Assembly (NCBI GenBank): GCA_008632985.1
Contig: QPGO01000031.1
Coordinates: 434,001 to 498,000 of the forward strand
DNA: 64,000 nucleotides
DNA from: Psammoneis japonica
Taxonomy: Eukaryota
Direction: 5' to 3'
Both the position numbers and the translations under genes were made by a program. Shown here piece after piece: positions 2,023-36,391 of this stretch (its first letter is position 1; every line of letters starts with the position of its first letter). Under the pieces are notes generated by a model. It saw only the letters and a list, made by a program, of their open reading frames with translations, made no database searches and had not been told where the DNA came from.

Positions 2023-2990
2023 ATGTCAGATGAACTCTGTCCATCCGCTGCTCAGGATTTCCATCACCGGATGATGGAGACAGTTGATGGTTTTGTTCAT
2101 GCTGACGCTGCTCGTTGTTCGGAGGAACAGAGAGCAAAGGATGCAAAGGCTGCTGTGTCAAGATCGGTGGAAGCAATGGCAGAAGCCCGTTGTGCCACTG
2201 TGGCTGCAACGACCACACTTGACAGTGCTTTGTTAAATCCAGCAACAACCACTCGCAAATTTAAGCACATCTGTGCGCAGTTGATTGAGTCATCGATCGA
2301 GACACACCATTCAGACAATGACTGTGTTGCCGCAGTGGAAAATTGCAGCGAAGCGGAAATGAGTTTCCAATGCTTTCTTCATGGTGACGCATTTGACGCA
2401 AAAGAATTGGGGCTCCCAATCTCCGTTGTGGACATCAAAAATCAGAGTTGAGGCTGCACATGCTGCACAGCTGTGACTCGACGTTGCTTCTGAGAAGCCT
2501 CAGGGCAAATTCTGACACAGATGCCAACAGAGTGGTGGAGAGGGAGCAATCTGCGATTGACAGCATCAACAAATCCATCCACCGCCGTGCCGTGCCACTC
2601 CTTCGAAGGCAACATCTAACACAGCCGCTGCGCATCCTGAAGGCTGCAATCACATTGCTCCATGGGGCCCTTGACGATTTGAGAAGGAAAGACGTTGCCT
2701 TGCAGTGACAGTGGCAAGCTTTGCATGTTCTGTGGCCAGGCACAGATCAAATGCGGGGAGGGACATGGACCGCGATCTGGGCTGTGGATGAAGAAGCCGT
2801 GGCAAGAGAAAGGGTCCTGCAGTTGGCATCGCAAATCGAGGCACAATTGGTGGCTGTCAACCAGCCTGACCACAGTGCCGACTTTCAGCAGGCAATTGTG
2901 GCTGCCAGGGAACATTTCATGGCGCAGGATGACCAAATGGACCGCGCAAGTGGACACTGCATAGAATCCACGAGGAAGCAATTGCTCTAA
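2023..2990 (+). pseudogene. Unidentified helical ORF fragments inside the transposon
   Basis: ORFs 2023-2451 and 2721-2990 read as protein-like, converge on the transposase 3' end and lack Tyr. No family recognised. Confidence 0.3.
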
Positions 2991-5900
2991 AAATGCACAC
3001 ACTGTGAGCGAAATGACAGATTGAAGCGCGCATCCTGTTTTAGAAACAAATCTGACCAACACTTCCTTCTGTCCTGTGCAGCCCAAACAAATGGGGCCTT
3101 TTCTTGCGCTTCTGCCACTCCTGGACATTCTTCATGAACCAAAACATTGTCCCCAATTGCTTCGACAGGGACAACACGCAACTCAGGTGAGTGCTGAGTC
3201 TTCTCAGGCGTTGACAGCCAGTTGTTTTGTTTGTGATCAAGCTGCCAGCGACTGACCAAGTCTGCATGCTGACACCGTTGCCTCATGGTTCTCTGGTCAG
3301 CTTGACAAGCAGTTGGATGGACAACTGCAAAAATTGATCCTGTGTGTTCCTGTTCAAAGAAACACAGCAAACGGGAGGGGAAACTGTTGATCGCCCTTTT
3401 GTGTGCCAAAGGTCACACAGGCAAAGTCATGCCATGGTCCTTCGCTTTTGAAATCGGGGTGCGCACGGTGCGCATCCCTCCCGTTTGCATTGTAAAACTC
3501 TGTCTTACAAGTCGGGTGTGCATTTTCACTGTCTTCACCAACACAATCCTCCCACTTTTCCGACATGAAGTTTGGCAACACAGGATGAACTTGGCAACGA
3601 GTGTGCTCGCTGTTCCACTCAAACGTCACAGCGCCAATCCCTCGGTTGCAGGTGAGAGTGAACGTGCTTCCTCCCAGCGTGTGATTGTCCATCCTGACTC
3701 TTGATGATTCCTTTTTCCCAGTTGGCAAAATCCAACCATTGGCTGAAATTGCGGCGTTGAGCCTCATTTGGTCCTCCATGCGCGACACGACCTGCTTCAG
3801 AAAACTGTCGAGGTTGCATTGTTGTGTGGTGGATGACGGCAGCTTGAAAAAGTCTTTCAAGAGACACCCCCCCAAGCCTGCGTCAAAGTTCATCGCATGT
3901 TGGCAACAACAAAGAAACACTGGGAGATGGAGTGTTTCATGAAGCTTTCGAAGCTTCCACCCGCATCCTTCTGTTCGCGGGACGAACTGCACTGTCCGGT
4001 CAATGAGGAGACGGATTTTCTTGTTCATTTTCTGAATGGATGAACTGGGAGTTGCGCTTGTGATGGGTGGATCGCCCAGCCTGTGCCATGCGTGGAAGAC
4101 AAGAAGGTCCTCGAGCAATTGAATGAATTGCCGGACGCTGCAGCCGAGTCTTTTCCCTTGCATTTTTTCTTTTTTTGGTTGTCGTCACCATCCTCAGCCT
4201 CACTCTCCTCTTTCTCATCCTCATTTTCGTCCCAGTCACCCTCTTCGGACTCCTCCGACCTTTCATCGTCAGAGTCGTCCAAGTGCTCACTGGGTTGGCA
4301 GCAACTCTCAAAGTTTGCTTTGGGTGTCTTGCGATTCTCTGGAACAATGGGTTCGTCTGTGTCCTCGTCAAGGAAGCATGACTCACATGTGTTTCGTCCC
4401 TCGCTGGTTGACAGGAGAAGGTAGAAAACAAAAGCCATTCCAGCCCAGTGGTGAGAGTTGAGGAAGGCAAGCGACGTTGCTCCTCCTTTGAAGTTTGTTC
4501 GCAAAAAGGATGCTTTGCAAGTTGACTGGTGATTGCTGAAAATCCTTTCCACTGTGCTGTCCACCTCACTTGCGACCACAGGTGTCATGCTGTCTACAAA
4601 TGAATTGATCACCCTTTTCAAGGTGCCGTTTTCAAAGAGATGCATCATGTCGCTTGCTGTCGCAAGGGTGACGCCGCATGGTTGTGCGCCAAAGTCTGCC
4701 TCAAAAAGACAGTTGGCAGGTGCATTGTGTTGCTTGAGGCAATGCAAGATGCCCAACCAGTGCTTCCTTTCTTGGTCTGATCTGTCATCGTCGTTGGCCT
4801 TAGTTTGCACTTGGTGGAGATCCAGTCCTTGGACAAACTCGCATTCAATCCATGGGTCGTCCAGTTTGTTGAAGCCAGTCAGGCAAAAACGACGCAACGT
4901 TGATGACAGTTGTGACCTCCGCATCGTCCGACGAGACAGTCGCCGCTTTTTGCGTCTCCTGTGATGAGAACAATCAGCGGGATCATGTGGAGGTGTCGCA
5001 TCTCATCCCCTCGTCGCACGCATGTTTTCATGCCTCCTTTTCTCATGACTTCCAAAAGTGGCTCCAAAATGACACGCAAGCAAGTGTGGCAGTCTCTTGA
5101 CGAGCGTCCCTTCTCCGCCTTGCGATTGTTTGAGAGATTCTTTGCCGCAGATGACGACATCTTTTCCAAATCCGGGAGATGACCAAGAGGTTTCCAGACA
5201 CTCTTGTCCGACCATTTGTTGAAGGCAACATGCGCAGAGGTCATGATCACTGGTTCTCCGCAATGTGATCCCATCCCTTGTGTCCTGCCAGTCTTGTTGA
5301 GGTAAATGACATTGCACTCGAGAAATTGTTTCTCCGGGTCAGTTGTCCGTTCTTCGTAACTACGCCTGCACCACTCACCTGCCAAAAGGCACTTGTCATC
5401 CGGTCCCTTTGCTTTGTGCTTCCCAAAAGGATTGTCTGGATCGGCCATGTTCTCTCTGCTGCACCACAGGTGAGGATCGAGCAAAAACTGTTCCCAAACC
5501 TTTGTGAAATCCCATCTTGGCACTGACACTCGTTTTGGCAAACCGGTTTTGAAATTTTTGGTTTCTAGAGTGACAGGAATAGACTCGCTGGGTGGAAGAG
5601 GGAAATGCTTGGTTAAGGTGCGCATCAACTCTTTTCTCCTTGGCAGAACTGCACCAAGCTCAATGTTGCTGTCACCAGTGTGCCTCTCAATGAAATCAAC
5701 AATGTGATCGCACAATTCCAGGGGAGCACCACGTGTGTCCATGAGCTTCTTGCACAACTCTACGCAAGCTCCGTCAAGATTTGTCAAAGAGGGAGTAGAA
5801 GCCAAGGCCTCTTCTGCAGGAGCATCACACCTGCTCCCCAAACGTTGATCCTCATCGTCAATGTCCTCTTCCTCCTCCATTGTCACGTCCAACACTGCAG

Positions 5901-6345
5901 CAAAGGATTGACCACCGCCAACATCCAACTTGTTCATTGCCAAAAGTTCAACTCCTTGCATGCTGTGGTTTGATGAAATGGAGGACATGTCGTCCATTCC
6001 GTGCGGCGCGTCATCCAGGGGAGGGGAACAAGGGGCTGCTGCTTGGATCACTCGTTGAAGATCTTGGGAATCTGCTGCGAGTTGATCGCCTGGGATGGGA
6101 TTCGTCATCATCAGAGGACAAAGAGGAAGAACTGCCACTTTCTTCTGGTGGCCCCTCTGTTGTGGCAGGAATGTCGCTTTGATCTGGGACCAGATCTTGG
6201 GTTTGCAACTCTTGGGCAACTGAGCAACACGTCGGTGAGCATCTCCAATGGCAGGCCATTCGCAAAAAACTTTGGTCACAACTGGGACAGAGAAGAGGGT
6301 TTCCGTCCATTGTAAATCAGACAATGTTGACAGGGCCTTCATCAA
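2987..6345 (-). pseudogene. Plavaka-family transposase, frameshifted and hypermutated
   Basis: Consecutive ORFs 4879-6345, 4025-4924, 3354-4163 and 2987-3409 carry motifs I recognise from this family: 'IPLIVLITGDAKSGDCLVGRCGGH', 'DMMHLFENG', 'KLRKLHETLHLP...NFDAG', 'AHRAHPDFKSEGPWHDFACV' (family pattern YRAHP..GPWYD). Confidence 0.75.
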
Positions 6346-6762
6346 GACTCATGCTTGTCGTCCTTGTCTTGTGGATGAGAAGGGGAAAAAAGAACAACAC
6401 GCAAAAAATGGTTGGGAAATTGGCAAACATTACATTGTCTTCCAGATTGGGATGATTCTTGCAGGTGTGACGCATCTGCATTTTGATTTTTTATCTGGCA
6501 TCCACAATGAATGTTGTGCTTTTTATTCACTGTCAAAATGCAGGACATTGTCTCCGTTGAAACGCAATGACAGCCATGTCAAAAAGCAAGTTGGACTGTT
6601 CGTTGTCATGTGCAAATGTGTTTTCAAATTTCAATGTTGCTGACAACAATTTGTGCAATGTCACAGAGAAAAACAGAGTGCCTGGCTGTCTCAACACGAC
6701 CCAAACGACGGTTGCACTGTCGAACAGCACCACTCCTCTCGTTGTTGCCGTGAAAAGATCAA

Positions 6763-7972
6763 GATGTCGTCTCCAGCACAACCGGCAAAGAAGAGAAAGA
6801 AAAATGAGACTGTTGAGCCAATGAGCCCGAGACTTCAGGCAGTGTTGAAGAGAACAGGCACGCAGCAGCGCATGGTGCATTGAAATCAGAAGCAGGGAAG
6901 GTGGCCAGAAATGATCTCTTTCCACAGGTGAAGTTTCTCAGTCCATCTGAGTTGGCAAGCAATGGGAGCGTCTCAATGTTTGTCAAGAAACAGATTGCTG
7001 GTGGCAACATGGACACTTCAAATCGGTCAGGAACTTGGGAGGAATGGGCAAAAAAGGCGGCAAAAGGCAAATTGACAATCGCAGATGTTCGGCTGTTGGG
7101 GCGGAGGCAATGGCACGCAAGTCAAGTGACCAATGTGTGTGATTCGAGAGTTGCGCGCATCTCACAAGAAGATGAAGGTGATGCTTTGTCTGTGTGGGCG
7201 TTGTCACTGAGGAAGAGGGAAAGGAAAAAGAAAAGAAACTCAAGGCGGCAGACAGGAGGAAAAAGAGGAAAAAGTCAAGCCGTGACAAGAATGAAGAGAA
7301 TGACATCCCGTTTGTGCCGACATGGGATCCGTTCAGCCTGGACACTGTCACCGGCGGTAAACGAAGGAACAAGCAGGCATGCAAGTGGTTCTGTGATCAC
7401 ATCCTGCCTCAAACCAAGCAAAAGCAGGCATGGAGCAGCACCGTCAAAACTGGGAACGCACAGGTCTCACAGTTGTTTATGGTCGGTGACGAAGCTTTGG
7501 CACTGTTGGCCATGGAGAGTCATTGGCAGGTGTGGGCATGCAGGAACAAGGAGGAGGCGGTGGAAGAATTGGGTGAGGAAATGGAGCCCGAAGAACAAGG
7601 CCTGCCCCTCGGTGCACGAAGCCAAAGAAACAATGAGTGTCTTGGGGAGACGACGGAATCAATCAGTTCAACGATTTGTGCAAAGAGGTGACGAAAGACA
7701 GAGACTCCAAGGAGGGCAAGGAGTTTGAAAAGTGGCATGCAGAGATCAAGAAAAGCGAGTGCGAGAAGTCCGGAGAAGCAAAAAAGAAGAAAAAGAAAGC
7801 ACCGGCCGGTGATGCAGACAAGGTGAAGGCAATGAACAGCCCAATGGTGGAGAGCAGCAGGGATGATGACAGCAACAACGATGAGCAGGAGGAAGGCGCA
7901 AAAGGCAAAACGGATGACAGAGGAGACGAGTCCGATGGAGACGAGTCCGATGATGATCGTCAGCTTGGTTGA
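6763..7972 (+). pseudogene. Transposon accessory ORF, divergent from the transposase, frameshifted
   Basis: 'FMVGDEALALLAMESHW' and 'SWGDDGINQFNDLCKEVTKDR' match the DEAFALL..EN.W / W..EGI..FN.L...V..DR pattern of accessory ORFs in such elements. Acidic and Lys-rich tails. Confidence 0.55.
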
Positions 7973-9460
7973 GAGAGTTGCAGCAAGAAAATGTGCACAC
8001 AGTTTACACAGCACTCGGTCATTGCACTGCAGACGCAACAAGGGATTGACTTAACCAATGAAATGCTTTTCTCGTTTAAGATGGTGTTTGCGAAAATTGA
8101 CAAACCAAGGATTGTGTGGAAATGCAACCACGCACTGGCATGTGGCAACAAGGTGGAGGCAGACACAGTGATGTGGACACAGTGAAAAACAGCGTGCATG
8201 ATTCTCAACGAGTCATTGCAATGTTGGTGTGGCAAACTTGTGACCAGAGGTTGGCCTTTCATCACATGACAATGATGTTTTGCAACATTTTGATGAATCA
8301 TCATCATGCAAATCTACACATTTTTGACATTTCGTGCACTCTGATGAGGAGGCTCCCATTCTGGTTGTTGACAAGCAGCTGGCTGCTCGTCTGGTTTCAC
8401 GTGCTGAACAAAGCTTTGGCCACTTGCCTTGTGTGCTGCCTGGTTGTGCAGGCCCTTCTTGAGACTGGCCACCCATTCAGGAGAGGAGCAGCTCAACACT
8501 GCGGCCCTGCTGCAGCCTTGGTTCCAGCCACATTGGTGCACTGCTGAGCTGACCCCCAGCGGCGCGCAGCATTTCTTCCTGTGGGCAGGGCACACAAGGC
8601 CAAGACTTGACTCTGTTGTGAACACCTTTCATTTTGGCAGGTTCCAGAAGCTCCAGGTGACAGGCAATGCATGAGTGCAATCATCAAATGTGGCCAACTT
8701 CACTGTCCCACAAACTTCTTCTTCAAGCTTGGTTTTTTCCAAAGCTGAGGTGCAAGCACACACAAGAATTTTTTGTGCAGCCGTGCTCCAATTTGTTTTG
8801 TGGGTTTCCAAATGGGAGTTTCAGGAAAGGTGTTAAGCTGCGATTGATGGATTTTTGGTTTCTCAGGAAAGGTGGTGAGCCCTGCTTGATGGATTTTTGG
8901 TTTCTCACCTGGGGCTGGAACAAGCAAGCCTTTCTTTGGAGTTTTGATGTGCAACCACTTGTGCCTGTGATGTCAAGTTTGGATTCAAGGAGTTGACTTT
9001 TGGAGTGGTCACAAGCAATGCTGTTCATGTCCTCACAACCAAAAAGTGAGAGCAGCCAGACTCTTGTTGCGCTTTGCTCTCATTCTGTGACAGCGTGCAG
9101 AGCAGCAGAAAACAGCCAAGCTGCAAATGCCAGCCACAGCAGCAGGGCGGTGATGAGGAAGAGTGCAAAAGAGTGCATGGTGTTAAAAAAACAGGTGGAG
9201 GGGGGCGCACAAGGAGATGGAAGATGCACTCCAAATCTTCTTTGCTGTTTGCAGTGAAGGGGGGGTTCAAGAGCGGCGGCTGATGACATCGCACCAAATT
9301 TGGCGCGCTTCAATTTTCGCGAGCTGCACCTCTCGCCTGGCTGCCCGTCTTGGATCTTCTGGGCGATGCAGTGTTGATGGCCTCATCATTCTTCCGGTCG
9401 GTATCTTCTATCATAGGGCCCTCCCTGCAGACAGTGCATGCTGTGTAACTTTCAGGACCG

Positions 9461-11200: not shown

Positions 11201-11378
11201 GTTCGACCGGTGTTCTCAACATCTGGCGTGGAGTCACTTTGAGCCTTTTGACATTCATTCCGTGTAGTGTGATAACTTGTTTGTGTTCTGATTTTTATGT
11301 CCCGGATCGTGTTTTTTGCGCGAATGGGTCGCGTGTCGGCGCCAGTCACGCCACGCAGGTCATGAGCTGGCTCTTTTT

Positions 11379-20085: not shown

Positions 20086-21645
20086 CGTGTAATTTTTAGG
20101 ATTGATAGATGATGTCTTGTCACTTTCTGTCTTCCTGGGTTCTCGTTGCAGCGGTTTGCTTCTAAAAATTTCTCGGAGTTTTCTTCCTGGTTTTCCTTCC
20201 TTTCTTTTATTGACTAATTTATAAAATGATTCAGAAATGCTTTTTATTAATGTCCATATGCGTGTGTAACCTCATCGTTTCGCAATGAGAACACACCAAA
20301 ATGGGCACATCCCATCTGCTCAGATGCGGGGAGCTCGCTTTGTCCTCGCTCTGCCGTCAGGCGGCAACAGATGCTGCAATCTTGACAACAACTGAAACAA
20401 GACTTGGTTTGAGGCCTGCCCCTGCGCATCCCAGTGCAACTGCTCGTCCTCCGGAGAGTTCCCAGCTCCATGCTCCCGCCAACTGCCCTCTCAACTGCAG
20501 CCAACGTGCGACTTCTCTCACCCGGGGTTCAAACAAAAAAAGTCAAGATGAAAGCGATTGGCGTGCAGCTGATTGGGCCACCCAAGAGCTGGTGGACACT
20601 TGCTGTGCTCTCGCACGTGTGGACGAATGCAGCCAAAACTTGTGTTCCTCTGCGGAAATCATTTTTTAAGAACAATCAAAACAAACTGTGAAAGTGAGTC
20701 AAGTGCCTGCACAAATGAAATGAAAGCAAGGATGCATGCTGTCAACCCAAGTGGCAGCTGGAGTGAGACCAGCTCAAAGACCTGGGCACACCCAGCTGAG
20801 TCAGCTCATGTGCTGCCAGCTGGAAGCCAGCTGTTGTGTCTGAGGACAGCAACATTCCCAAAGAGAGTGCAATCAGCCAAAGCTTGAAACCCTCAAATCA
20901 GGCAGCTTTAACTTGCAGCCAGTTTTCTTGGATGAAGTCATGAATGAAGTTGCAGCAATGAGCTGGGCTGATGCCACCAAGCTCTTGACCAAGTGCTGCA
21001 AGCTCCTCGCGCCTTTGGAGAGCCAGTGCGCTGACAGCAACCACGGCTTGTGTGCATTTCACCTTTTCATCTCTTGTTCACCAACACACTTCCAGCTGCC
21101 AAGCTCCTCATGCCCAAATGTCTGCAGTCACAAACTTCACAGGAGAGCTGCTTCCCCCACTCTGTGTTGCAACAGCTTGCAGCAAAAAGGTCAGCACTGT
21201 CAATCAAGAGCAAGTTCCTCAGCAAGGTGGTTGTGCCTGTCAACAAGGCACCTTTTCCATCAACCCCAGAGCCCAGCATCGAGGCCCACTTGTGTGCAGT
21301 CAAAGACTCACGTGTGCGAGTGGCGCTGCTTCACTTGCCAGCATCACCAGCATGGCATGTGCGCAGGTGTGCTGACAGCCATTTGTGTGGGAAACAAACC
21401 TGCCAAATGCCCCTCTTGGATGCCCCCCCCCCCCCCCCCCGATTGTGCGCTGCAGCTCCCAGCCACAGCATCCCCATGTGGGGTGAAGCACCAGCCGCAA
21501 GACACTGCAAATCTGCACCCGTTGCGCCGGGTGAGATGCCTCAAATCTTGTCATTGCAAAGTGCCCCACAAATGGTTCCACTGACTGGGTTCATGCTTCT
21601 ATTTTCATTTGCGTCAAACACTCGAGTTGCTCTCTTGGAGACTTG

Positions 21646-21830
21646 TGTCAGTCCACCTGTCGTACGATGGACAGACTGTGTGGATGATGACTGGACCATT
21701 TGGACAGATGAGCAGATCTCTCTGAGATCTGCCTCTCACTTTCTCATCCACTGGTGCTCGTGCTGTCACAGTCCCAGTGCTTGGGGAGTCTTTCATGCCT
21801 CCATCATCATTGACCTTCAGCATTCTGTCA
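21646..21830 (+). repeat. 5' LTR (185 bp)
   Basis: Direct repeat of 28600-28786; starts and ends TGTCA. Confidence 0.95.
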
Positions 21831-22029
21831 GGTTGTGGCCTTGCGCTGTGCCACAGAACTCTGGCAAAGCTTTCCATCTTGATTCATTTGTTTTGTGAGC
21901 CGACCGAGCAAGCCTCGTCATCTGTTCCAACAACAATTTTTTTCTCGTTTTCCCGGCATTTTTCACGATCGTAGAAACACACCAGATTTCTGCGTGTGCA
22001 TGACCAAAAATGCCCTCTCCAAGTGAAAC

Positions 22030-25000
22030 CATGGCATCTCCCGACCTTGCAAAGGCCGCTCAACGTCCATCACAGAGATCCATTGTGAATTTCAAGAACA
22101 TGCAACGACACCTCATTTCCATGCGACCTTGAACAAGACACACACGGATTCAATGTTTGATCTGGACCCGTTCTTTGATGATCCAGAACATGCTCAAGAA
22201 AGATTTTGTTGACACATTTCGAGTTCACCTCATCAACATGGCGTTCCCACCTTGCACGGTTCATCCTGCAGACATGCAGCCTGTCAAGACGATTGTGGAT
22301 GAAGCTGCGTTCCGCATTGTTGACTCTGCCAGGCCTCGTGCAACCCGCATGATGCCCGCATCTCTCTCATCGATCATCAAGACCAATCTCCGGAACCACA
22401 ATCAAATCACATGTGTTGTCATCTCTACACACCACATCAACGTTGACCCCGACATGATGTGGAACTGTGAGGATTGGAAGGAGTTCTCCCTCATGCCCTG
22501 CCTGCAGAACCCACAGCCCACACCATCATCTACGACTGGTTCAGGACCCACAACAGCTGGTGTGAATGACTCAATCACGCCCTCAACAAGTTTGTGTCAA
22601 GCCACGCTCCGCCTTCTGCTGCCTCTGGCAAGACCTCTGGAACCCCTGCAACTTCCACAGCATCCAAACATCTCTTCAATCCCAACACCTGCAAAGAAAG
22701 TGGTGCCGTCACCCTGAAGAGCTCTCTGGTCCCTTGTGACATGGATTCCGCCACTGTGTTGATGCATCAGACCGCATCATTCTCAATGATGGTGCCCCAT
22801 TCATCATGAGCTCAGCCCCCAACCAGAAGATGCCATTCAGAGAACCTCGATCTGCCATGACGATTCTCCCGCTGGGACACGTGCATGGCACCAAAATTTT
22901 CAACGTCACTCCTTTGACTCGGGACACTGTGTGCATCCTTTGTGGTGCTTTCCAAGGACCACGGTGGTGAGAAGGGTTTTGAGATTGGCAATGGCAAAGA
23001 TGATGACTCACCCCAACGAATGTATGTTCATTGTAAAGAAGCACAAAGTTCCCTTCACAAGACACTTTCCAAGTCGGACATGTTCCCCAAGAACAGCAAG
23101 TGTCATCGGATTGTTGCATCATGCTGTGGCAACGGCTGCAAGGCTCTCAAGCAAATTGTCTGTGAGAACCACCCAGCTTTCACCACGAAGCTGCTGGGTT
23201 GGTAGATTCCCACCCTGTTCAAGGAAATCTGTCCTTGACGGACTGTCACTTGCGTTTCAAGGATTTTCTACAGCTGCGCGCTTGTGTCTTTAATGTGGAC
23301 TCTACGTTGGATGACTCTCGAGAGATGACTGTTTTCATCAAGAACACCAAATGCTCCAAGTTCTCACCCCATGCTGCTGGAGATGAAAGGAAGTCCCCTG
23401 CTGTGCTCAAGAAGTGCACGGATGCACAGATTGTTGAGACCCCATCTGACTTCCTTTGTCAGTCGGATGGCCATCTCTTGCAACTCACACGAATCCTCGC
23501 AATCCACACCGCACATGGGATCGACACCCAGGGGACACACATTGCACAACTGCCGATGTCAATTCCTTGACTGTCCCGGATGTCCCTCCCATTGCAGAGG
23601 ACACTGATGAGCCACCTTCACCGATCACTCCCCCGAGGACACCTTTGACTCCCTCTGTGCTGAATTGCATGACCTTGACATGCCTTCTGCAGATGAAGAT
23701 CGTCTTCTTCATCATGTTTGCTCTGCTTTGGCACACAAACTCAAGGTTGCTCCCACAGAGGCCTCCAAGAAACCATGCCTTGTTTGTTCTGAAGAACACT
23801 TGTTCCACGAGTGTCCTGTCTTGAATGACAACCCGCCATCAAGGGCTTCCACACACGTTTTTGTCAATTCTTGAAGTGTGAAGCGGCCATGCGAGCCTCT
23901 GGATTTCAAGGACCACAAGGTTTGTTGCCGCCTCATCAAGGACCATCTGATTCTCGCCCAGTGCTGGTGTCCAGTCTCCGGATTTTCAATCGGGACATCG
24001 CAGCTGGTTTTGGATCTCCGACGCAGCCCATTCTCTGCCCACCAAGACAAGACCAATGTCAGCGGGATGACTGTGAAAGAGGGACCAAACGTCTCGTCAT
24101 CTGCCGCTGTGCTGCCTCTTTCTTTGACGACTGATGTGGACTGCATCCCTGACTCGAAGGTCTCTCCTGACACCATCAAGTTGCCTGATGATGATCCTGT
24201 TTCTCCCTGATGGCACATTGGAGACTGATCCTGTTCTGGACTCTTTAGAACAGGGGAGGGAAGATTTAGAGGAATGTGAATTTGCCAAGTTTGTTGATCT
24301 TGCCTGTGATGACATTGCTGTTGAGGACGGTTTTGCCACAGTGAATTCTGTCCGCGTTTCCCCACTTGTCCCACTGCACGATGATGATTGGATCCACCAG
24401 ATCTGCTCCGCACTGCCTGCGCTGTCAATGGTGTCAAGTTTGCCCCAAATGAGCAATGTGCTCAACTTGACACTGGTGTGCTGATGTTGCTTGTGCTGGA
24501 GATTGTGATCTCCTGCATCAATGCCAGGCATTTGCTCCTTCCGCCCCGTGCCCGCTTGCTGCCAATCCAGCTCTTGGACATGAAGCTGTCCCAGTCGGCT
24601 TTGGATGTCTTCGCATCCCTGCGGAGAACTCCGATGGCCATGTTGAGATTCGTGCATGTCACCACCCCACAGCTCCAATCCACCTTGGTTGATGAGCATT
24701 TGCTGCTCCGTCAGAATGGCGCCCGTCACATGGATTGCAATGTTGATTGCATCCTCAAGTTCCATGATCTTGGCACTTGCAAGTTTGTTGTGCACGGCAT
24801 CATTTGCGCAAGAGTCAGGATGTTGTTGTTCATGGGAAACTGATCAATGGCAAGTGTCACACTCACCCACTCATTCTCCCAGAATCACATGATGAGCCAG
24901 ACGCATCAATCGAGCGCCTCAAGGCAAGTGACCCCTCCTTTGCGGATGAATGTGAAGCAGTCTCAGCCCACATGATTGAAACACATCGTGAACACCAACA

Positions 25001-28000
25001 TGATGCTCTCTGCATGGAACGAAAGTTGATCCCCTGAGCATGTCAAGACATCCCGTTTGAGCAGCACGCCAAGAAGAACACTCCCGTTCAATCCCTCAAG
25101 GCTGGTGCGGAACGCCTTTTATGGCATCAACGTCTTGGACACCCCAGTGATCACTGTCTTTGCCATGCTCACGAACATGTTGATGGTGTCCCCAAGTTTG
25201 CACATGGCACATCCCCCCTTGACACTTGCCCCACATGCATCCGGGCCAAACAGATGAAGGAACCTGCTGGACCCAATGCTGCTTTGACAGCCACCCAACC
25301 CCACCAAGGTCTCACCGTAGACTTTTCTTTTTCTGGTCTCCGCTCCAGGAACACTGAGCATGTCAAAGACTGTGTTGGGTTGAATGGTGAGACGTGTTGG
25401 ATCACCGTTTATGATCATGCAACGAAGCACCTCCATGGTGCGACTCGTGTCTCAAAGGCCACCCCCTTGAATTGGATTCGCCACTTTCTGGAGGAGCACT
25501 CGCCAAAATGTCCTGATGAACATGTTTTTCTGGATCAAGGAGGTGAACTGTGTGACAATCCGGTGGTTCGGCGACTCTTTGAGGATGACTTTCATTGTGC
25601 AATTTGTCCCACTGGCAAAGATGCTTCAAATCAGAGTGGCCCAGTTGAACGGAGTCATTTGACCATTGCCAATGCCATTCGGGCGATGCTTGTCAGTGCC
25701 AATTTACCCGTCAAGTTCTGGCCCCATGCTTTCCATCACTTTGTTCGGATCAAGAATGCTGTGCCATCCCGGGGGCAGACTGCTGCTCCGATTGCACTTG
25801 CTGCTGGTCGGAAGGATGACTTTTGGAACTTCCACACATTTGGTTGTCGCGTTTGGGTGCGTGCTTCGAATCACCGTCCGGCAAAATTCCGGACCGTCTC
25901 ACGCAAAGGGATTTTCTTGGGATGCCTCCCGGATGCCACCAAGAACATTTTATGGCATGACACCGAGACATCGCGTGTCAAGCTGGCCAAGCACATCAGA
26001 TGTGATGAGGGGATGAATGATTTACCCCACGAATCTATTCCCCTGAATGTTGTTCATTTGCAACGTGCTCAGGCTGGTGATGCCCTCCCTGCCGACACTG
26101 AAGAGACCACTGTGGATGAGCTCCACTTTCATGGTAACCCTTTCGCCAAGACCATCACACGCATCATGAAAGGACCTTTCACGGATTCCACTTTTGGCTT
26201 TTCATTGGCTGTGGATGATCCACACCAACGTGTTTTTGTCTTGGACATTAAATGTGGTTCCCCCGCTGCTCGTCTCTTCTCAAACTTGAAGGCAACCCAC
26301 AACAAGATCAAAGGCACACACACAGTGTCGATTGATCATCAACCAGTTTTTACCCATGACGATGCTGTCAAGCATTTCCAGCAGTTGCGTGAGTCTGGCA
26401 AGACACATTTTGAAATTGAATTCATGCCAGAACGTTGCTTGGACTCTCAGGCTCTCCAACGTGCTCTGATGGAACATGACGTGTTCTCCCCCACCCCGGA
26501 CCCTGACGATGAGCATGTCCCGGAGCTTGCACAAGCCGACACACGTGCCATTGCTGCAGTGCGCCATCCGGGTGCTGATTTTGAAGCCATTGACAACAAC
26601 GACGTCCCACCACCTGTCCATGTTGACCGTGACAATGGTGTCATCCATGTCCGTGCGACATCCTCCCATGCAATTGCCCCAGAGCAACAAGCCTTGGGCA
26701 CCTTCACTCGCCATCGACTCAAGAAAATGGACACTTGGCCTGAATGGCATGCGGGCGAATTTAAACAACTTGACCAGTTTCATGAGTTGGGCATGTTTGG
26801 TGCTCCCATCAAACGTCCGAAGGACGCAGTTGCACTGAGACCACACTGGCAATGTGACCTCAAACATGATGGTGCGCGACGCTCTCGTCAGTGTTGTGAC
26901 GGATCCCCTCGTGCTGCATCTGTTCTCCACCGTCTTTGTTCAACATGCTCCTCCTGTGTTGAGCAACCTGTCCAATGGATGTTCTTTGCCCTGGCAGCTA
27001 CGATGGGTTGTCTGGTGCATGGCGGTGATGCCCGCGATGCCTGTGCCCATTCTCCCCGCGCCCATCACATCCTGTCTGCGTTGCCATTGACAATGCATGT
27101 GCGACTTGGCACAAGTCTCGCTTTGGAAAGGAATTGGACAGGAGCACGGCACTTCCCGTGCAACATGCTCTTCAAGGACACCCAGAAGCCGGCGTGCTCT
27201 GGGAGAATCACATTGATGGTGTCTCATCTGATGTGAATCTTTTGTTCCGGAACACTGCTCATGACAAATGCATCTGCTCTGCTGCATTTGAAGGACACAA
27301 AATTTTGCTCCTTCGACAGGTCGATGACTTCGCCATTGCTTGCCCCGAGGAGTCCATTGCCAGGACGATCTATGACAGGATCGGCAAAGCCCTTCAATTG
27401 GACTCAGAAACTGCTCCCCCTTTCAAGCACCTTAGCCTCTTGGAGGAATTCAATGGCGTGGACATCCATCAGCATGATGATTCGATTGGCATTGCCATCC
27501 ACAATTACATTGATCGTGTTTGCCTCTCACACGGTTGGTCTGCACCAAGTGATGACGAACTGCTTGATGACTCCAAGGTGACTCCGATTCCGGTGGACTC
27601 CATTTGAGATCTTTACACTGACATTGGTCCTGCTGAAGGTACACTGGAACATGTGGAGCTGCATCAAGCTGCTGGATTTGGATGCCGTGCCCTCCTTGGT
27701 GAGCTGTTGTGTGCGTGTGTTGTCTGTCGACTCGATGTTGGCTGTGCTGTCACTGCCCTTTCCAAGTTCTCCACTTGCCCTGTGGTGGCACATTGTGATG
27801 CACTCAAGGGTGCATGCAAGCACATCTCCGATGTGCCAAACATTGGGAATTGAACTGCAAGAAATCTAAACGTGACCCGAGCCTCCCTGCCTGTCCGTTT
27901 GAACGCTTGAGCCCCAGCCCGTCTCTCCCGTCATTCCCCACTCCTGAGCATGACCATCAACTTGTTGCCTTCCTTGATGCTGCATGCGGAAATGATCTTC

Positions 28001-28430
28001 GTAATCAACGTTCTACGACGGGACATGCTTGCATGTTGGCTGGTGTGCTGCTGTCTCCTTTCGTTGCAAAACGCAGTCGGTGACCGCTGCGAGTTCCACA
28101 GAAGCGGAATTCCATGCTGCTGGCACCACCGCCAAGCATGTTCTTCACCTTCACCATGTGCTGCATGACCTTGGTTACTCCCAAATGAAGCCAACCCCCT
28201 TGCATGTTGACAACAAATTGGCCATCAAGATCATCAATCATTCGATTCCGACCGAGCGTTCGTGCCACATTGAGACTCAGTTTTTCGCGATTCAACAATG
28301 GAAGGAAGCGGGCAAGATTGTCGCTGGACATGTCCCTGGCATTGTCAACCCCAGCGATGACCTTGCCAAGGCTCTTGGGTGGGTGCTCCACGCTCGCCAT
28401 GCTCGACACATGATGGGACACTGCCGTTGA
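22030..28430 (+). pseudogene. Copia gag-pol, broken
   Basis: Zn knuckle 'CLVCSEEHLFHEC' (~23775), protease DTG(A) (~24465), 'LWHQRLGH..CPTC', integrase 'DQGGEL..GPVER', RT 'ALQGHPE..RQVDD', RNase H 'DAA.GND..SSTEAEF..DN..HIE..NPSDDLAK'. Confidence 0.9.
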
Positions 28431-28599
28431 TGTTTTTTCTGCGGTGGCCTCCCCTGCTGTGCATTGCCCCGTCGTTTGATGCGTGTTGGGCTTGGACACC
28501 TTTGGTGTCCTCTTTCTGGTCGCTCTGTTTACATCATCCCCATTCTTGTTTTGATCTGCACTGTCTTCCATTTTTGAGACATTGCAGATCAGGGGAGGG

Positions 28600-28786
28600 T
28601 GTCAGTCCACCTGTCGTGCGATGGACAGACTGTGTGTGGATGATGACCGGACCATTCAGACAGACGAGCAGATCTCTCTGAGATCTGCCTCTCACTTTCT
28701 CATCTACTGGCACTCGTGTTATCACAGTCCCAGTGCTTGGGGAGTCTTTCACACCTCTGTCATCATTGACTTTCGGCATTCTGTCA
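28600..28786 (+). repeat. 3' LTR (187 bp)
   Basis: Direct repeat of 21646-21830; preceded by a polypurine tract. Confidence 0.95.
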
Positions 28787-29175
28787 ACTTGTCGTCATCT
28801 TGTGGCAAAAGCACGCGCCAACCAAAGAAAAGAGAGAAGACAAGGTGCACATTTTCAAAATTGTAGGCGCTTTTCCATTCAACATTCTTCTCATCAGTCC
28901 ACAACACATTGAGAGACCTGTGACAAATCTAGAGGGCTCCTTTCACACCATGTGCGACGGCGGAGGTTTGGCCTGGGGCACAGGAGAAGTGCTCCTGTGT
29001 TTTCCTGGGCTTTTGCGCGAGAGAACAAAAAATTCGCAAGGACAACGGACTCGGACACGTGAAGTTGCGACAACGACAACCACACAAAATTCCAAAAATA
29101 TGCCACCACAAAAGCGAGACACGGCACTTTGAATTTGCGGAGCCAACTACACTGACCCTACTAAAGTTATTTTCC

Positions 29176-33049: not shown

Positions 33050-33691
33050 GTTTTACCCCATGGTTGTTTTTTTTTTGCCATGCAGTGGCAGAGGAGTGCC
33101 TTGCCTGCTCCAGGTGTTGGAACATTAGGGTTAGAGGCAGTCTTTGTTGCACGGAGAAACAGAGTTGCAGCACAAGATGTGCTGACGATTGCGAGGAACA
33201 CGGCAAGTTTGTGTTCATGAGCTTGGATTGAGCTGCGGGTCTTGTGCTCACTTTTTGCTTCTGCACCCAGTTGACACTGCAATGGCCACACTGTGAGTTG
33301 GGAGACAGTGAGACCAAACTCGTGCCCCAGTCGGCAAGCCGAAAAGCTCTGACACAGAATCCAAAGAAAAGTCATGACACAGAACAAGGGCTGGGAAGTG
33401 GAGAAGAATTTGCAGAACAAGGGCTGCAAAGATTGAGACAGGAGTCCAAAGGAAAGTGCCGGGAGGTCAACAGGAATCCTGGGGCAAAGAAATGATCCCT
33501 GGAGGTCCTTGCCATTGTTGAAGAAGCTGTTGAGGGTCTGCTGAAAGAGGGCCAGGGTGCAGCAAGGTTGTGTTGGGGTCAGACAGAGTGCACATCTGTT
33601 GGCAAGCTGTGGAACTTGCACACAAGACCCAGAAAAGATGGGCAAGGACCAGCCACAGCTGAGTGTTCAGAAGCAGAAAAGAATTTAAAGA

Positions 33692-33733
<42 letters not shown>

Positions 33734-36185
33734 TGTGGTGTGTGTGTGTGGTGTGTGTGTGTGGTGTGTGTGTGTGTTGTGTGTGTGGTGTGTGTGTGTG
33801 TGTGTGGTGGTGTGTGTGTGTGTGTGTGATGCCATTTGCTGAGTCAGAATGACAGGCAGATGGACACACAGAAACAACAAGGAGGACCAGTGAGTGCATT
33901 GGAAGAATGTTTGGGACAGAGATGCAGGCATTGGCATCTCTGAGGCAGGAGAGCATGCCAGGAGAACTGGGTTGTCTGTCAAGAGACACCACATTGGAAA
34001 AGGATGTGAGGCAATCTGGGGCAAGAAGTGCCATGATCACCATGTGAAACAAAGTGCAGTCTGCAAGATGCAGAAGGCAAAAGCAGCAGCACTCAATGCA
34101 ATTGTGGGGCAATGTGCAAAGGCTGTGTTCATCACAAGCTTGAAGAAGTGGCAAAGTTTGTGAGAGTCTTGAAGGAGGCAGCGGTGCATGATCTTGGTGG
34201 CACTGCTGAGCACTCTCAAGCCAATCTTGTTCAACGCAAATGAAAAAACAAACCCACACATCCAGTCCCAGGCAGGCAAGGCTTGGAAGCAGTTGGTGCT
34301 CATTTGTCAATGTGAAGGAGCGAGAAGTGCTCCAAGACTGTTGCAGTTGGTTCGCGAGTGTTGTCAAAATGGCAAAAATGTTTCATGGCAGGATCATCCT
34401 GGAAGAAATTGCCAAGAAAGAACATGGGTTCAACAAAAATGTTGAAAACACCCAGAGCAGAGAGAGGAACAAGTCATTGGCTGTGATGCCAATGGAAGGT
34501 GCCAAAGATCATTTTGGCATGTCTTGGAAGACCCACATTGGCAGTTTAGCTGCACTGGGGGGGGGGGGGGGGGGTGTTTGACATGCACCCCAATTCAGCC
34601 AAGGAGGAGGCACCACAGGTGTTGAACATGCATGGGACCAACAAGAAACCTGAGGGAGCAAGTTTTGCACAGAATGACAGCGAACATTGTGCGCTGGAAG
34701 TGCGACAAAGTTGGGCATGTCAGGAGAGATTGTCCTGACAAAGTTGATGTGGCATTGGGTCGCATGGCTTCCCAGTGTCATCCTCCCATGCTTGATGAGC
34801 AAGAGGTCAACAGATTGATGAGTTGTGCAAAGGAGTGTGTTGGAACATTGGCGCCAGAGGCAGATTTCATGATGTGGACAGACAGAGTTGCAGTGCAAGG
34901 CACACTGACAATTGTGGACAATGTGGCAAGTTTACATTCAAAAACTTGGATTGAGTTGCAGGTCTTGCTGTGCTCACTTTTTAGCTTTTGCACCCAGTTG
35001 ACACAGTGATGACAGCCAGCAATGTCAGTTGATGTGTTTGCAAGCCACGCAGCAAGTCAGGAAATGGCAAGACCAAATGCACGCTGGTCAGCAAGCCACA
35101 AAGCTCCAACACCAGGCCATCACCCATCAGGCATCACACACATGATTGGGTGTGATGCTGGCAACACTTTCAGGTGGCAGCAGCAGGCAAAATGAGGGAG
35201 GGGAAAGGAAGGCAGTGGCTTGGCCAATGCAGAGTCAAGAAGTTTGACAAACATGACAGTCATGGAGCTGGCAACACTTTTGAATGGCAGGCAAAATGAT
35301 GGGAAGGAAGTGGTTTGGCTGATGAAGAGTCAAGTTTGATGAGTCATGGAGGCCCCAGAGTGATGTGCCAGGGCAGGGGTGAAGGAGCGGTGCTGCAGCA
35401 GAGCCCAGCTTTAAGGTGGTGTGCCAAAGCTTTGTTGGTTGATTTGCTCTTTGCTCCAAGACTTGGTCAAACCAGCTGGAGCAAGCCTCCTCAGTGTGCC
35501 ATTTTGTGGTTTTTTGGTGTGATCCTTGGCACTTGCCTGCAGGAAAAGAGAGCACATGTGCGGCGCTGCGCTGTCGCGCCAAAGAGAGGAAAGAAGGCAG
35601 TGTCGCCACCAAAGCAGCAACAAGAAGCCATGAGGAGGATTGTCAAAGATTGGGAAGGATGGCTCCACAGATCCACATGTCATCTTCAAGCCTCCTTGAT
35701 TTGATGACCACATGTTTTTTTCATGCAGGATTTTTTGTCAAGAACCTTTTCGCCCCTTCTTTCGTCACTCCAATGTTTTTTGTGTGTTCCCCCAATTTCT
35801 TTGTGCAATGCCCATTTTTTGTCTCTGCCTTCTTTGAACTCTGAAGACCACCCCAAGAAAAGAGCTGTGACTCACAGCCCGGGAAACGATGGCATGCACA
35901 CTGGGCTGCATGTGGCCAGCCGGGGTGCAGACTGGGGCGGGCTCTGGACAGCCAGCAAAAAGCGGTTTTTTGTGACATCGTGTGCCCCACCAGCACAGTT
36001 TTTCCAACACATCCACCCCTTGTTGGAATTCAGTTGAAACTTTCTCACAAAACATGCAGGCGCACATGTGGTGTTTTGCACGGAGGAGATCCTGTGGTGT
36101 GGCGACTTCTGCCATGCAACACTGAATGGCCCCCTTTTTTTGGATGACAGATGCGTGCACGGTGACGAATTTTGACTGGTGTTGC
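33050..36185. mobile_element. Highly decayed repeat or TE (TpA- and CpG-depleted tract 4)
   Basis: Near absence of TA and low CG. Internal diverged duplications (33220-33355 vs 34945-35110; 35157-35225 vs 35267-35320). No recognisable domain. Confidence 0.5.
33694..33828. repeat. Imperfect (TG)n microsatellite with TGG interruptions
   Basis: Directly visible. Confidence 0.95.
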
Positions 36186-36391
36186 AAAGTATCCGGATGT
36201 GGCGCATAACCTGCCGAGTACCGGTACTACGATGGGCCGTACGTGAATAGGTACCGGAGCGAGGCGTTGAACTCTTTTTGGATCATACATCATTGAAAGA
36301 GTCTAAATGCATTGTTAGCCGCCGGGCACAAGCTGGCACGAAACACGCAACGCTCCGCATCACTTCGCCGTTGGCCGAAAAACGAGGCACC

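Follow-up and report, generated by a model that had tools for sequence, protein, structure and literature searches.

The locus at 21646-28786 of the window, the whole stretch of 64,000 nucleotides that was analysed, raises the question of which process can strip a retrotransposon of its TpA dinucleotides, and with them of its tyrosine codons. The earlier note on this DNA had read the pattern as mutagenesis for genome defence, a reading that is supported by the direction of the changes, their presence on both strands and their timing after insertion. Very probably, a targeted TpA-erasing hypermutation resembling a genome defence acted on the element once it had inserted.

A dead Copia element with a single tyrosine in its 660-aa ORF

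Psammoneis japonica 21646-28786 (+) is a Ty1/Copia-type LTR retrotransposon that is full-length but dead. LTRs with TG...CA ends and a 5-bp target site duplication (TSD), as expected of Ty1/Copia (diatom CoDi-like) elements, are both there, and LTR ends and TSD agree exactly with the element limits given in the earlier note. Also, the pol order, integrase followed by an RVT_2-type reverse transcriptase, is that of Ty1/Copia. In Pfam searches an upstream ORF matched SH3_retrovirus (E 1.2e-8), and a downstream RVT_2 match had E 2.4e-6 and 27.8 bits, under the cutoff of 31.6 bits. In tblastn comparisons the region was colinear with diatom Copia polyproteins of 1000-1100 aa carrying PF13976, PF25597 and PF07727. 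The pol frame is broken at least three times, near 27053-27056, 27823-27847 and 28047-28056, and the ORFs of 21831-25100 gave no Pfam match when gag and protease were looked for. No second Copia copy occurs within the 64-kb window, close copies are absent from the protein collection (best match 57-62% identity, near and shorter length classes), and no RNA run is among the sequencing runs listed as containing the element. The retrotransposon would have come in by ordinary transposition, its 5-bp target duplication being intact.

Table 1. Features of the analysed window (positions refer to the whole stretch)
Feature	Position	Strand	Remarks
5' LTR	21646..21830	+	185 nt, TG...CA ends
3' LTR	28600..28786	+	187 nt
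TSD, left copy	21641..21645	+	ACTTG, 5 bp
TSD, right copy	28787..28791	+	ACTTG, 5 bp
Polypurine tract	28591..28599	+	purine run AGGGGAGGG adjoining 3' LTR; read directly, assigned by position
pol (pre-integrase/integrase SH3, RVT_2 reverse transcriptase, C-terminal RNase H region)	25086..28421	+	homology
660-aa ORF	25254..27236	+	1 Tyr (0.2%), His 7.1%, Cys 3.2%
Block A	371..9402	.	38 TA vs 570 expected from base composition
Plavaka-like DNA-transposase relic, inside block A	4879..6348	-	protein similarity
Block B	20268..29098	.	41 TA vs 517 expected from base composition
Block C	33133..36189	.	5 TA vs 190 expected from base composition
Direct-repeat pair of block C	33114..33355 (first copy); partner 34837-35112	+ (first copy)	

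That the 660-aa ORF has only one Tyr, as noted earlier, is borne out, and 15 aligned relatives have 1.9-4.1% Tyr. At the 12 columns that are Tyr in at least half of these relatives, the ORF has Cys six times, His four times, Phe twice and Tyr never. One motif previously counted as a lost Tyr site, IFLGC, has to be struck from the list, the relatives' consensus being Phe at this position. Whole pol (25086-28421) was compared with 76 of 100 relatives, after 24 with less than 2% Tyr had been dropped, and its 21 consensus-Tyr columns now read Cys (10), His (8) or Phe (2), with Tyr kept in one. Among 90 differences at 424 conserved pol columns, 71 have a single-base path, and in 31 of the 90 the sole such path is TA>TG (20) or TA>CA (11). 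The replacement of Tyr by His or Cys, together with the polarised spectrum of a related metagenome family (see below), supports the proposed direction from TA to CA or TG.

A different origin of such a composition would be inheritance of low TpA within element families, by selection or ancestral composition, or CpG deamination alone, with TpA loss as its by-product. Most genomes avoid UpA to a mild degree, and CpG decay is real at this locus and also feeds CA and TG. However, the relatives have a normal Tyr content and TpA observed/expected ratios (O/E) of 0.55-0.8. Moreover, conserved Tyr residues are replaced, frames are broken, three unrelated sequence types have low TpA in common, and CpG deamination is unable to remove TpA. 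Inherited composition is already contradicted by these observations, and we consider it extremely unlikely.

TpA is erased in sharply bounded blocks

Over the whole element, the strand-symmetric TpA O/E is 0.09, with values of 1.62 for CA/TG and 0.57 for CpG; in the 660-aa ORF TpA O/E is 0.10. The genic 2-kb bins at 36-64 kb of the window have TpA O/E of 0.49-0.62. Three blocks (Table 1) together reach 0.07 (84 TA in 20.9 kb); outside the blocks the value is 0.51 for long ORFs and 0.60 for the rest of the DNA. Block edges are sharp to tens of bases, so that erasure is found in local domains and neighbouring DNA is normal. Also, CpG O/E amounts to 0.52 inside and 0.96 outside the blocks.

Block A harbours the relic of a Plavaka-like DNA transposase with 0.4% Tyr, compared with 1.8-4.1% in 20 relatives. 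Its eight Tyr-majority columns read His (2), Cys (2), Tyr (2), Glu (1) and Phe (1). The claim that a DNA transposon is affected too therefore stands, on thinner data, with four of the eight columns His or Cys.

Block B starts about 1.4 kb before the element and ends about 0.3 kb beyond it, and both flanks have single-copy depth in the contigs of sequencing run X1. The left flank is as thoroughly erased as the element yet has single-copy depth, which leaves the label 'repeat-targeted' of the earlier note unsupported; the target may therefore be silenced or foreign DNA and not repetition itself. In our view the domains would be chosen by silent chromatin or foreignness rather than by repeat number. 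The left flank could also be an ancient repeat that is no longer recognisable, and not unique DNA.

Block C is a repeat that matches no Pfam family at cutoff, with a weak zinc-knuckle match below cutoff at 34626-35006. In its 2-kb bin at 34001 CpG O/E falls to 0.22. The differences within its repeat pair include eight CA/TG doubles, seven CG versus CA/TG and one TA versus CA/TG. Across 39 ORFs of both flanks and block C, no Pfam family scored above its cutoff, and neither the flanks nor block C resembled the metagenome loci. When they were compared with the window, the internal repeats of block C were the only similarity.

The two LTRs diverged by the same changes after insertion

The 3' LTR differs from the 5' LTR by 16 mismatches and a 2-nt gap. 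Four CA/TG doubles, three cases of TA versus CA/TG, three of CG versus CA/TG and two other changes account for the mismatches, and 14 of the 16 mismatched bases are interchanges among TA, CG, CA and TG. No TpA and three CpG are common to both LTRs. From CpG decay alone about 0.4 doubles would be expected (P(≥4) = 6e-4), and the four CA-versus-TG doubles therefore indicate that most change took place after insertion, on genomic DNA. Per LTR, change would then have reached about 84% at TpA, about 33% at CpG and about 0.6% at other bases, which amounts to a roughly 100-fold rate per base at TpA, a figure with only two background events behind it. Much of the TpA loss is private to this insertion, in a comparison that spans only 185 nt.

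Polarised substitutions in a related Copia family

The window element's own family offered no further copy that was readable base by base, and substitutions were polarised in another Copia family, with 52 copies from short-read environmental metagenomes, whose amino-acid identity with the element is about 50-55%. Tabulation of consensus-polarised substitutions by dinucleotide, which the earlier note had suggested, revealed the TpA transition excess in this related family. In the most affected copy (L076), T>C occurred at 53/134 and A>G at 87/154 of the TpA positions, compared with 80/799 and 57/871 elsewhere; CpG transitions were at 0.10-0.13 and transversions at 0.02. Its 172 consensus TA sites now read TG (95), CA (62), CG (3), other (10), TA (1) or gap (1), meaning that 160 of 171 TpA sites were converted to TG, CA or CG. 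Were T and A hit independently, 38 CG would be expected, and only three were observed. TpA-specific A>G and T>C change was encountered in the rates of this family, in the Tyr columns of the window and in the differences between its LTRs.

The same site has different outcomes in different copies of the family, and the events are therefore independent. No strand runs were detected in L076 (77 runs versus 76 expected), and no kataegis-like strand-coordinated clustering in 13 copies. Several copies have more TG than CA (95:62 in L076, p = 0.01; 46:16 in L045, p = 2e-4), and this excess may be a context or strand effect.

These data bear on an origin from RNA or cDNA during retrotransposition, in which ADAR-like A-to-I editing or reverse-transcriptase errors were copied into the genome. 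The TG excess on the sense strand of several copies would suit this origin, as would the preference of ADAR-type enzymes for a 5' U, which is mentioned in the Discussion of a preprint on Bigelowiella natans (Mettrop et al. 2026, bioRxiv 10.64898/2026.01.13.699255). In contrast, both mirror products occur interleaved in every copy, the LTRs of one insertion differ at TpA-derived sites, and the erasure extends to the DNA-transposon relic and to flanks outside the element. The LTR and DNA-transposon data refute an RNA or cDNA origin for most of the signal, and as a general account it has hardly any probability left. The interleaved products and the LTR differences also support the earlier argument that two mirror products within one copy point to a lesion on genomic duplex DNA.

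Among family copies with CpG O/E of about 0.6-0.8, TpA O/E ranges from 0.01 to 0.7. CpG decay and TpA loss are uncoupled, because copies of similar CpG O/E vary so widely in TpA O/E. This speaks against biased repair, in which a T:G-mismatch activity directed against 5mC deamination might remove T in methylated domains and so fix replication-error T:G mismatches at TpA as C:G. Very-short-patch repair of E. coli, which depletes CTAG, offers an analogy, the CpG depletion of the TpA-poor blocks is expected of methylated DNA, and polymerase error rates before repair could conceivably give the roughly 100-fold excess. However, we know of no eukaryotic T:G glycosylase that works in a TpA context. 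In B. natans the rate turns on and off between lines and therefore looks regulated (Mettrop et al. 2026). Biased repair thus appears quite improbable.

Sequence context of the mutated adenine

Rates by context were obtained from eight partly mutated copies of the metagenome family. With a 5' T, A>G reached 430/1344 (0.320), as opposed to 113/2241 (0.050) with a 5' A, 194/2968 with a 5' C and 96/2918 with a 5' G (0.033-0.065 for G or C). By 3' base the rate was 0.44 for C, 0.38 for T, 0.20 for A and 0.19 for G. The TpA surviving in the blocks of the window are the mirror image of this preference, with RTAY at 4/85 versus 502/1628 outside and TTAA at 17/85 (chi-square p = 4e-8). Polymerase eta raises A>G at ApA as well as at TpA (WA motif), and mutagenesis of this type was rejected, A>G being at 0.050 with a 5' A against 0.320 with a 5' T.

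As to chemistry, the best candidate, which we put forward tentatively, is an ADAT/TadA-like deaminase that works on DNA and attacks adenine in a T-A context. With the same targeting, the thymine of TpA might instead be modified to 5-hydroxymethyluracil or a base-J-like product by a TET/JBP-type hydroxylase, and then mispair with G or be excised opposite G, giving T to C. The data fix the dinucleotide and the transition only, so that either base of the pair might be the target, and T in TpA-type contexts is the preferred site of both 5-hydroxymethyluracil in dinoflagellates and base J in kinetoplastids. However, the literature found on 5-hydroxymethyluracil, in the portions available, concerns dinoflagellates, and none of it links the base to diatoms. 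The obligatory 5' T fits instead the substrate context of ADAT/TadA enzymes, which is U33-A34. Thymine modification is therefore unlikely, and adenine deamination by an ADAT is also what the B. natans preprint suggests (Mettrop et al. 2026).

Differences among contigs of run X1

Run X1 was compared as contigs and is possibly the window's own source sample, and for both reasons it is weak as an independent check. Of the 31-mers sampled from the element, 54% lie in its contigs at a k-mer depth of about 50-60, and among 1827 aligned contigs 386 agree to at least 99%. In the single-copy flank at 20006-21440, X1 contigs differ at 4/28 TpA bases, all of them TA to CA or TG, and at 9/1406 other bases (p = 7e-5); haplotype or strain differences are 26-fold enriched at TpA. 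The process is probably recent or ongoing. The 348 differences between copies comprised 66 A>G, 73 T>C, 80 C>T, 81 G>A and 48 transversions. Among 40 of the 348, those within the element were mostly CpG-related (CA>CG 7, TG>CG 4, classed singly) and few kept TA in other copies, so that part of the TpA loss could be shared by descent.

The agreement of these contigs with the window also speaks against a sequencing or assembly artefact, for instance the misreading of a modified base in long-read basecalling. The run may stem from the same sample and was compared as contigs, which would leave some room for such an error. However, the same signature is present in independent metagenome assemblies, is coherent at the codon level and is absent from adjacent genes. 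The B. natans process was measured experimentally with Illumina reads (Mettrop et al. 2026). We therefore regard an artefact as highly implausible.

Discussion

The process described here is specific and directional, acted after insertion, is organised in domains, and recurs in copies independent of one another and in elements of diatom type from the environment. In the mechanism that we propose, the chromosomal palindromic step 5'-TA-3' would be converted to TG or CA by A to G change on either strand. A T directly 5' of the mutated A is required and a 3' pyrimidine favoured (TAC and TAT over TAA and TAG). The strand is chosen independently at each site, and the reaction stops once one hit has destroyed the TpA, reaching near saturation at TpA while other sites hardly change. 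Its domains are sharply bounded, covering the element, the DNA-transposon relic, the third repeat and some flanking DNA, and also undergo the CpG decay typical of methylated, silenced DNA. As an outcome, Tyr codons and TAA and TAG stops would be lost and the elements irreversibly inactivated.

Among known systems, the earlier note had set aside RNA editing, reverse-transcriptase error, RIP and 5mC deamination, and the pattern is indeed none of theirs, although CpG decay runs alongside. Like ascomycete RIP, the process makes dinucleotide-specific transitions, permanently inactivates mobile DNA, may spill over into flanking DNA and can be traced in base composition. Unlike it, TpA is destroyed and GC goes up, whereas RIP changes C to T mainly at CpA, makes TpA and lowers GC. 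RIP needs duplication and a sexual phase, whereas one affected flank here has single-copy depth. Fungal RIP was rejected, its direction being opposite to a TpA O/E of 0.09 with CA/TG at 1.62. Deamination of 5mC at CpG shares the products TpG and CpA and is active in the same blocks (CpG O/E 0.52; CG versus CA/TG differences between LTRs). In contrast to it, TpA is removed here and Tyr becomes His or Cys, and the CpG process is several-fold slower (about 33% versus about 84% of sites in the LTRs). Animal APOBEC3, acting on cDNA, and ADAR, acting on dsRNA, likewise hypermutate retroelements in a context-dependent way, and ADAR also favours a 5' U. However, theirs is strand-asymmetric, clustered and pre-integration, on single-stranded cDNA or RNA, whereas here both strands are hit without clustering and after integration, in a DNA transposon too. 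Strand-asymmetric editing before integration, as by ADAR or APOBEC, was rejected on the strand runs, the LTR differences and the DNA transposon.

The closest counterpart is found in B. natans. In mutation accumulation lines of this alga, about 6e-7 changes per site and generation were recorded in integrated viral DNA, all of them A>G/T>C at TpA, and its TpA-depleted coding sequences are enriched for RT and DDE domains (Mettrop et al. 2026). The two cases have in common A>G/T>C confined to TpA, both mirror products, local domains of foreign and partly silent DNA, TpA-depleted and CpA- and TpG-enriched sequences with RT and DDE, a possible single-copy target and an uneven activity, there between lines and here between copies. 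They differ in host, a diatom here and a chlorarachniophyte (Rhizaria) there. For B. natans there is a direct measurement of the rate, and TpA is mildly depleted (Rho TpA 0.45, NCLDV region), whereas here we have a historical footprint only, which is near saturation (0.01-0.09) and lies in LTR retrotransposons as well as a DNA transposon. Compared with the cited text of the preprint, we add the 3'-pyrimidine motif, the independence of sites and the CpG decay that accompanies TpA loss.

In a search of literature that includes few subscription journals, no account of TpA-directed hypermutation in a diatom turned up. The earlier statement that no description in diatoms was known holds to this extent, but the signature itself is in print for a chlorarachniophyte (Mettrop et al. 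2026). To judge from this search, it had until now been seen only in this one distantly related alga. It is conceivable, though for now a speculation, that diatoms and chlorarachniophytes have in common an ancient defence, a chromatin- or RNA-guided DNA adenine deaminase with a 5'-T-A-Y motif that would be the A:T counterpart of fungal RIP and perhaps widespread in SAR algae. A natural adenine base editor would then rewrite TpA in silenced mobile or viral DNA until it is dead.

The TpA-erasing process shapes a third of the 64-kb window, and TpA O/E combined with CA/TG O/E offers a simple genome-wide marker of silenced or foreign DNA in diatoms. With TAA and TAG gone, diatom repeats can resemble long ORFs in all six frames, and such repeats mislead gene callers. 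The search for the enzyme is constrained by the obligatory 5' T, the 3' pyrimidine preference, the inactivation of a site by a single hit and the lack of strand processivity, and a natural enzyme that converts A:T to G:C on the chromosome would interest the base-editing field. If the process is the same as in Bigelowiella, it would be a defence across at least two SAR lineages and not the curiosity of one alga.

Structure of the Copia element

The interval 21646-28786 singled out in the earlier note coincides with the bounds of one complete LTR retrotransposon of the Ty1/Copia type, whose LTR pair is bordered on each outer side by the five bases ACTTG and whose 3' LTR is adjoined by a purine run. 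A Pfam search of the open reading frames (ORFs) revealed a retroviral-integrase SH3 domain (E 1.2e-8) in the internal region and, downstream of it, a reverse transcriptase of the RVT_2 type (E 2.4e-6, short of the Pfam cutoff); it recognised neither a gag nor a protease domain. The pol region is colinear with diatom Copia polyproteins of 1000-1100 amino acids in four pieces, indicating that the reading frame changes near 27053-27056, 27823-47 and 28047-56. The nearest relatives come from pennate diatoms (Cylindrotheca, Nitzschia, Fragilaria) and metagenomes, with identities of at most 62%. In contigs of the sequencing run X1, the element has a k-mer depth of 370-4400 versus about 50-63 for its flanks, and its Copia family is therefore multi-copy.

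Features of the window and their positions
Feature	Position	Strand	Remarks
Block A	371-9402		TpA-poor
Plavaka-type DNA-transposase relic	4879-6348	minus	in block A; weak Pfam match and homologues
Tandem repeat	8821-8904		42-nt unit, two copies 86% alike; near right end of block A
WW-domain ORF	10385-11215	minus	one WW domain
WW-domain ORF	13048-13962	minus	one WW domain; neighbour of the preceding ORF
Block B	20268-29098		TpA-poor; holds the Copia element
5' LTR	21646-21830		185 nt, TG start, CA end
pol region	25086-28421		
3' LTR	28600-28786		187 nt, TG start, CA end
Zuotin/ZRF1-like gene	29059-30969		DnaJ, zuotin-homology and two Myb domains; directly beside the element
Block C	33133-36189		TpA-poor
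Direct repeats	33114-33355, 34837-35112		block C
zf-CCHC zinc-knuckle match	34626-35006	plus	block C, between the direct repeats; weak, E 0.002, below cutoff
1387-aa open frame	54432-58595	minus	normal TpA content; no Pfam family at E <= 0.001

Loss of TpA and its effect on codons

The strand-symmetric observed/expected ratio (O/E) of TpA is 0.09 in the element and 0.49-0.62 in all 2-kb bins from 36 to 64 kb; O/E of CA/TG in the element is 1.62 and that of CpG 0.57. Among residues, tyrosine shows the loss most clearly: the 660-aa ORF of the element has one Tyr (0.2%), 7.1% His and 3.2% Cys, and Tyr amounts to 1.9-4.1% in fifteen aligned relatives (15 of 38 matches). For a comparison across the whole of pol, 76 of 100 relatives were kept, the 24 with less than 2% Tyr being left out as possibly affected themselves, and codons counted as conserved when six or more relatives could be compared and no fewer than 70% of them agreed. 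The window departs from its relatives at 90 of 424 such codons, and at the 21 positions with a Tyr consensus it encodes Cys (10), His (8), Phe (2) or Tyr (1). For 71 differences a single-base path is available, TA>TG being the sole path in 20 and TA>CA in 11; the others comprise 7 CG>CA and 1-2 CG>TG, along with 12 further transitions and some 18 transversions, and 19 differences need more than one change. With 18 of the 21 consensus-Tyr codons reading His or Cys in a TpA-poor element, the replacement of Tyr by His or Cys proposed in the earlier note is borne out; its motif IFLGC was misread as a lost Tyr, the relatives' consensus there being Phe.

TAA and TAG occur at 1.7 and 1.1 per kb versus 8.4 and 8.3 in the genic part, making them about six-fold rarer, and it is this scarcity that leaves overlapping ORFs in all frames of the region. 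Three predicted Copia proteins from metagenomes (P0025, P0037 and P0069; 354-549 aa) have no Tyr at all and 7.8-9.3% His plus Cys; gene callers translate hypermutated relics such as these into proteins.

TpA-poor blocks beyond the element

The positions of TA mark three blocks with abrupt edges, which jointly cover 20.9 kb with 84 TA, a TpA O/E of 0.07 and a CpG O/E of 0.52. Outside them, TpA O/E is 0.51 in long ORFs and 0.60 in the remaining, mostly non-coding DNA (CpG 0.96), and since non-coding DNA reaches 0.60, lack of selection alone is insufficient to produce the pattern. The transposase relic of block A has 453 relatives at E <= 0.001 (phmmer), and all five top relatives tested match Plavaka. 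Its Tyr content is 0.4% versus 1.8-4.1% in 20 aligned relatives, and at eight Tyr-majority columns it has two His, two Cys, two Tyr, one Glu and one Phe, in line with the claim that a DNA transposon is affected too.

To the left of the Copia element, block B continues for another 1.4 kb; to the right it goes on for 0.3 kb, up to the start of the zuotin-like gene. The two flanks have single-copy depth in X1 and may represent an ancient repeat or, alternatively, unique DNA into which the erasure spread. The TpA-poor zone at 28787-29098 covers about 300 bp upstream of this gene and ends at its beginning. In block C, the zinc-knuckle match may be what is left of gag from a small element of the LTR type. 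The two WW-domain ORFs are possibly paralogous, and TpA O/E is intermediate (0.24-0.38) in the bins around both.

Differences between the LTRs

LTRs of a single insertion are identical at integration, and the 16 differing bases and the 2-nt gap between the 5' and 3' LTR therefore arose on the chromosome. They comprise four adjacent CA-versus-TG doubles, three cases of TA versus CA/TG, three of CG versus CA/TG and two others; common to both LTRs are three CpG and no TpA. A double could stem from an ancestral TA or CG with opposite strands struck in the two LTRs. From three intact and three singly changed CpGs, about 0.4 doubles are expected by the CpG route (P(>=4) = 6e-4), which argues that most doubles are former TpAs. 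The implied change per LTR is about 84% of TpA, 33% of CpG and 0.6% of other bases, a roughly hundred-fold per-base excess at TpA over a background of only two events. The repeat pair of block C shows the same class of difference as the LTR pair, its 55 mismatched bases including 8 CA/TG doubles, 7 differences related to CG and 1 related to TA.

The LTR differences, the occurrence of changes on both strands and the presence of a DNA transposon among the affected sequences rule out editing of RNA or cDNA as the source of most of the signal; the earlier note had likewise argued against RNA editing. It was also correct that neither RIP nor 5mC deamination explains the loss: RIP runs in the opposite direction, and CpG deamination is present in the region, yet incapable of removing TpA.

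Polarised changes in a related family

A scan of metagenome contigs yielded 80 related loci with TpA O/E of 0.01-0.81, the majority at 0.55-0.8, and 56 of them form one family with 76-89% DNA identity to locus L076. After removal of four near-duplicates, 52 copies were aligned, and the majority base among the 33 copies with TpA O/E >= 0.55 was taken as ancestral. L076 (5501 bases) has a TpA O/E of 0.01; its sister copies, which belong to the same series of samples, have a normal value of about 0.6. At TpA it changed T>C at 53/134 and A>G at 87/154 sites, compared to 80/799 and 57/871 elsewhere, which is the TpA-specific transition excess expected from the earlier note, here found in a related family. 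CpG transitions amounted to 18/142 and 15/143, other C>T/G>A changes to 0.05-0.06 and transversions to 0.02. Changes at TpA were graded in L030, L045, L072, L034, L049, L020, L050 and L060, and reached 0.01-0.10 in normal copies. As TpA O/E varies widely among copies at similar CpG O/E, decay of the two dinucleotides is uncoupled.

At 172 consensus TpA sites, L076 reads TG (95), CA (62), CG (3), TA (1), a gap (1) or something else (10). Since about 38 CG would be expected if T and A were struck independently, a single change abolishes the target. The order of TG and CA along L076 is random (77 runs versus 76 expected), as it is in 12 other copies (lowest P = 0.05, L020), and thus lacks a processive single-strand signature. 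Outcomes at one site vary among copies, indicating independent events; the three pairs with shared patterns (L072/L030, L049/L050 and L038/L040) each represent one lineage. Sense-strand TG is favoured in most copies, and the imbalance can take opposite directions (TG 46 : CA 16 in L045, TG 6 : CA 14 in L060); context or a true strand effect may account for it.

Sequence motif

In eight partly mutated copies, with strands collapsed, A>G occurred at 430/1344 sites with a 5' T, 113/2241 with a 5' A, 194/2968 with a 5' C and 96/2918 with a 5' G. The low value after A rules out a polymerase-eta-like WA motif. Rates according to the base 3' of TA were 0.44 for C, 0.38 for T, 0.20 for A and 0.19 for G. 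The context of TpA surviving in the window blocks independently agrees with this motif (chi-square p = 4e-8): the doubly favourable RTAY accounts for 4 of 85 survivors versus 502/1628 outside, the doubly unfavourable YTAR for 30/85 versus 282/1628, and TTAA for 17/85.

Comparison with X1 and timing

Of the element's sampled 31-mers, 54% occur in X1 contigs with a k-mer depth of about 55, and 386 of 1827 aligned X1 contigs are at least 99% alike, although X1 may derive from the very sample that was assembled. A basecalling artefact is very unlikely, since metagenome assemblies made independently carry the signature as well and it is coherent at the codon level.

In the single-copy flank 20006-21440, X1 and the window differ at 13 bases, involving 4 of 28 TpA bases versus 9 of 1406 others (p = 7e-5). 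All four are TpA in the window and CA/TG in X1, three of them at the very edge of block B. With polarity assumed, this comparison hints at a recent or ongoing process. Within 20245-20270, an X1 contig has CA/TG for the window's TA at 20248, 20257 and 20267/8, as if the erased domain were about 20 bp longer at its left edge in another haplotype or strain. Among the 40 differences listed out of 348, those in the element interior are mostly CG in other copies and CA/TG in the window, with few sites where other copies keep TA; part of the TpA loss may be older than the insertion.

Possible mechanism and relation to known systems

The process is specific for one dinucleotide, has one direction, acts on both strands of chromosomal DNA, is restricted to domains and strikes sites independently; direction, strands and substrate support the reading of TA>CA/TG hypermutation on genomic duplex DNA put forward in the earlier note. 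Substrates of ADAT/TadA enzymes have a U33-A34 context. Because the obligatory 5' T resembles it, deamination of adenine in a T-A context would be our tentative choice of chemistry, and the authors of a study on Bigelowiella natans suggest likewise, proposing an ADAT2-like deaminase in their preprint (10.64898/2026.01.13.699255). Thymine modification and biased T:G repair are less probable alternatives. Targeting by silent chromatin or foreignness seems more likely than targeting by copy number.

According to that preprint, two integrated viral regions in B. natans mutation-accumulation lines mutate about 1000-fold above the rest of the genome, with almost only A>G/T>C changes, all at TpA, and TpA-depleted coding sequences are enriched in reverse-transcriptase and DDE domains (10.64898/2026.01.13.699255). 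The signature in the window is alike, but concerns a different lineage, transposons and near saturation. Diatoms or stramenopiles are not mentioned in the accessible text of this 2026 preprint, and passages of the methylation papers PMC9998398 and PMC12344493 do not treat TpA, the former describing diatom DNMT4 enzymes, of unknown function, as akin to the fungal RIP enzyme RID. The earlier note knew of no description in diatoms, and no report of TpA-directed hypermutation in diatoms was found in the literature searched; yet the signature itself has been published for B. natans (10.64898/2026.01.13.699255). The signature in the window is thus not categorically new and is a notable extension of a kind described very recently in B. 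natans; what the present analysis contributes is the motif, the loss of the target after one hit, and the dating of the changes to after insertion.
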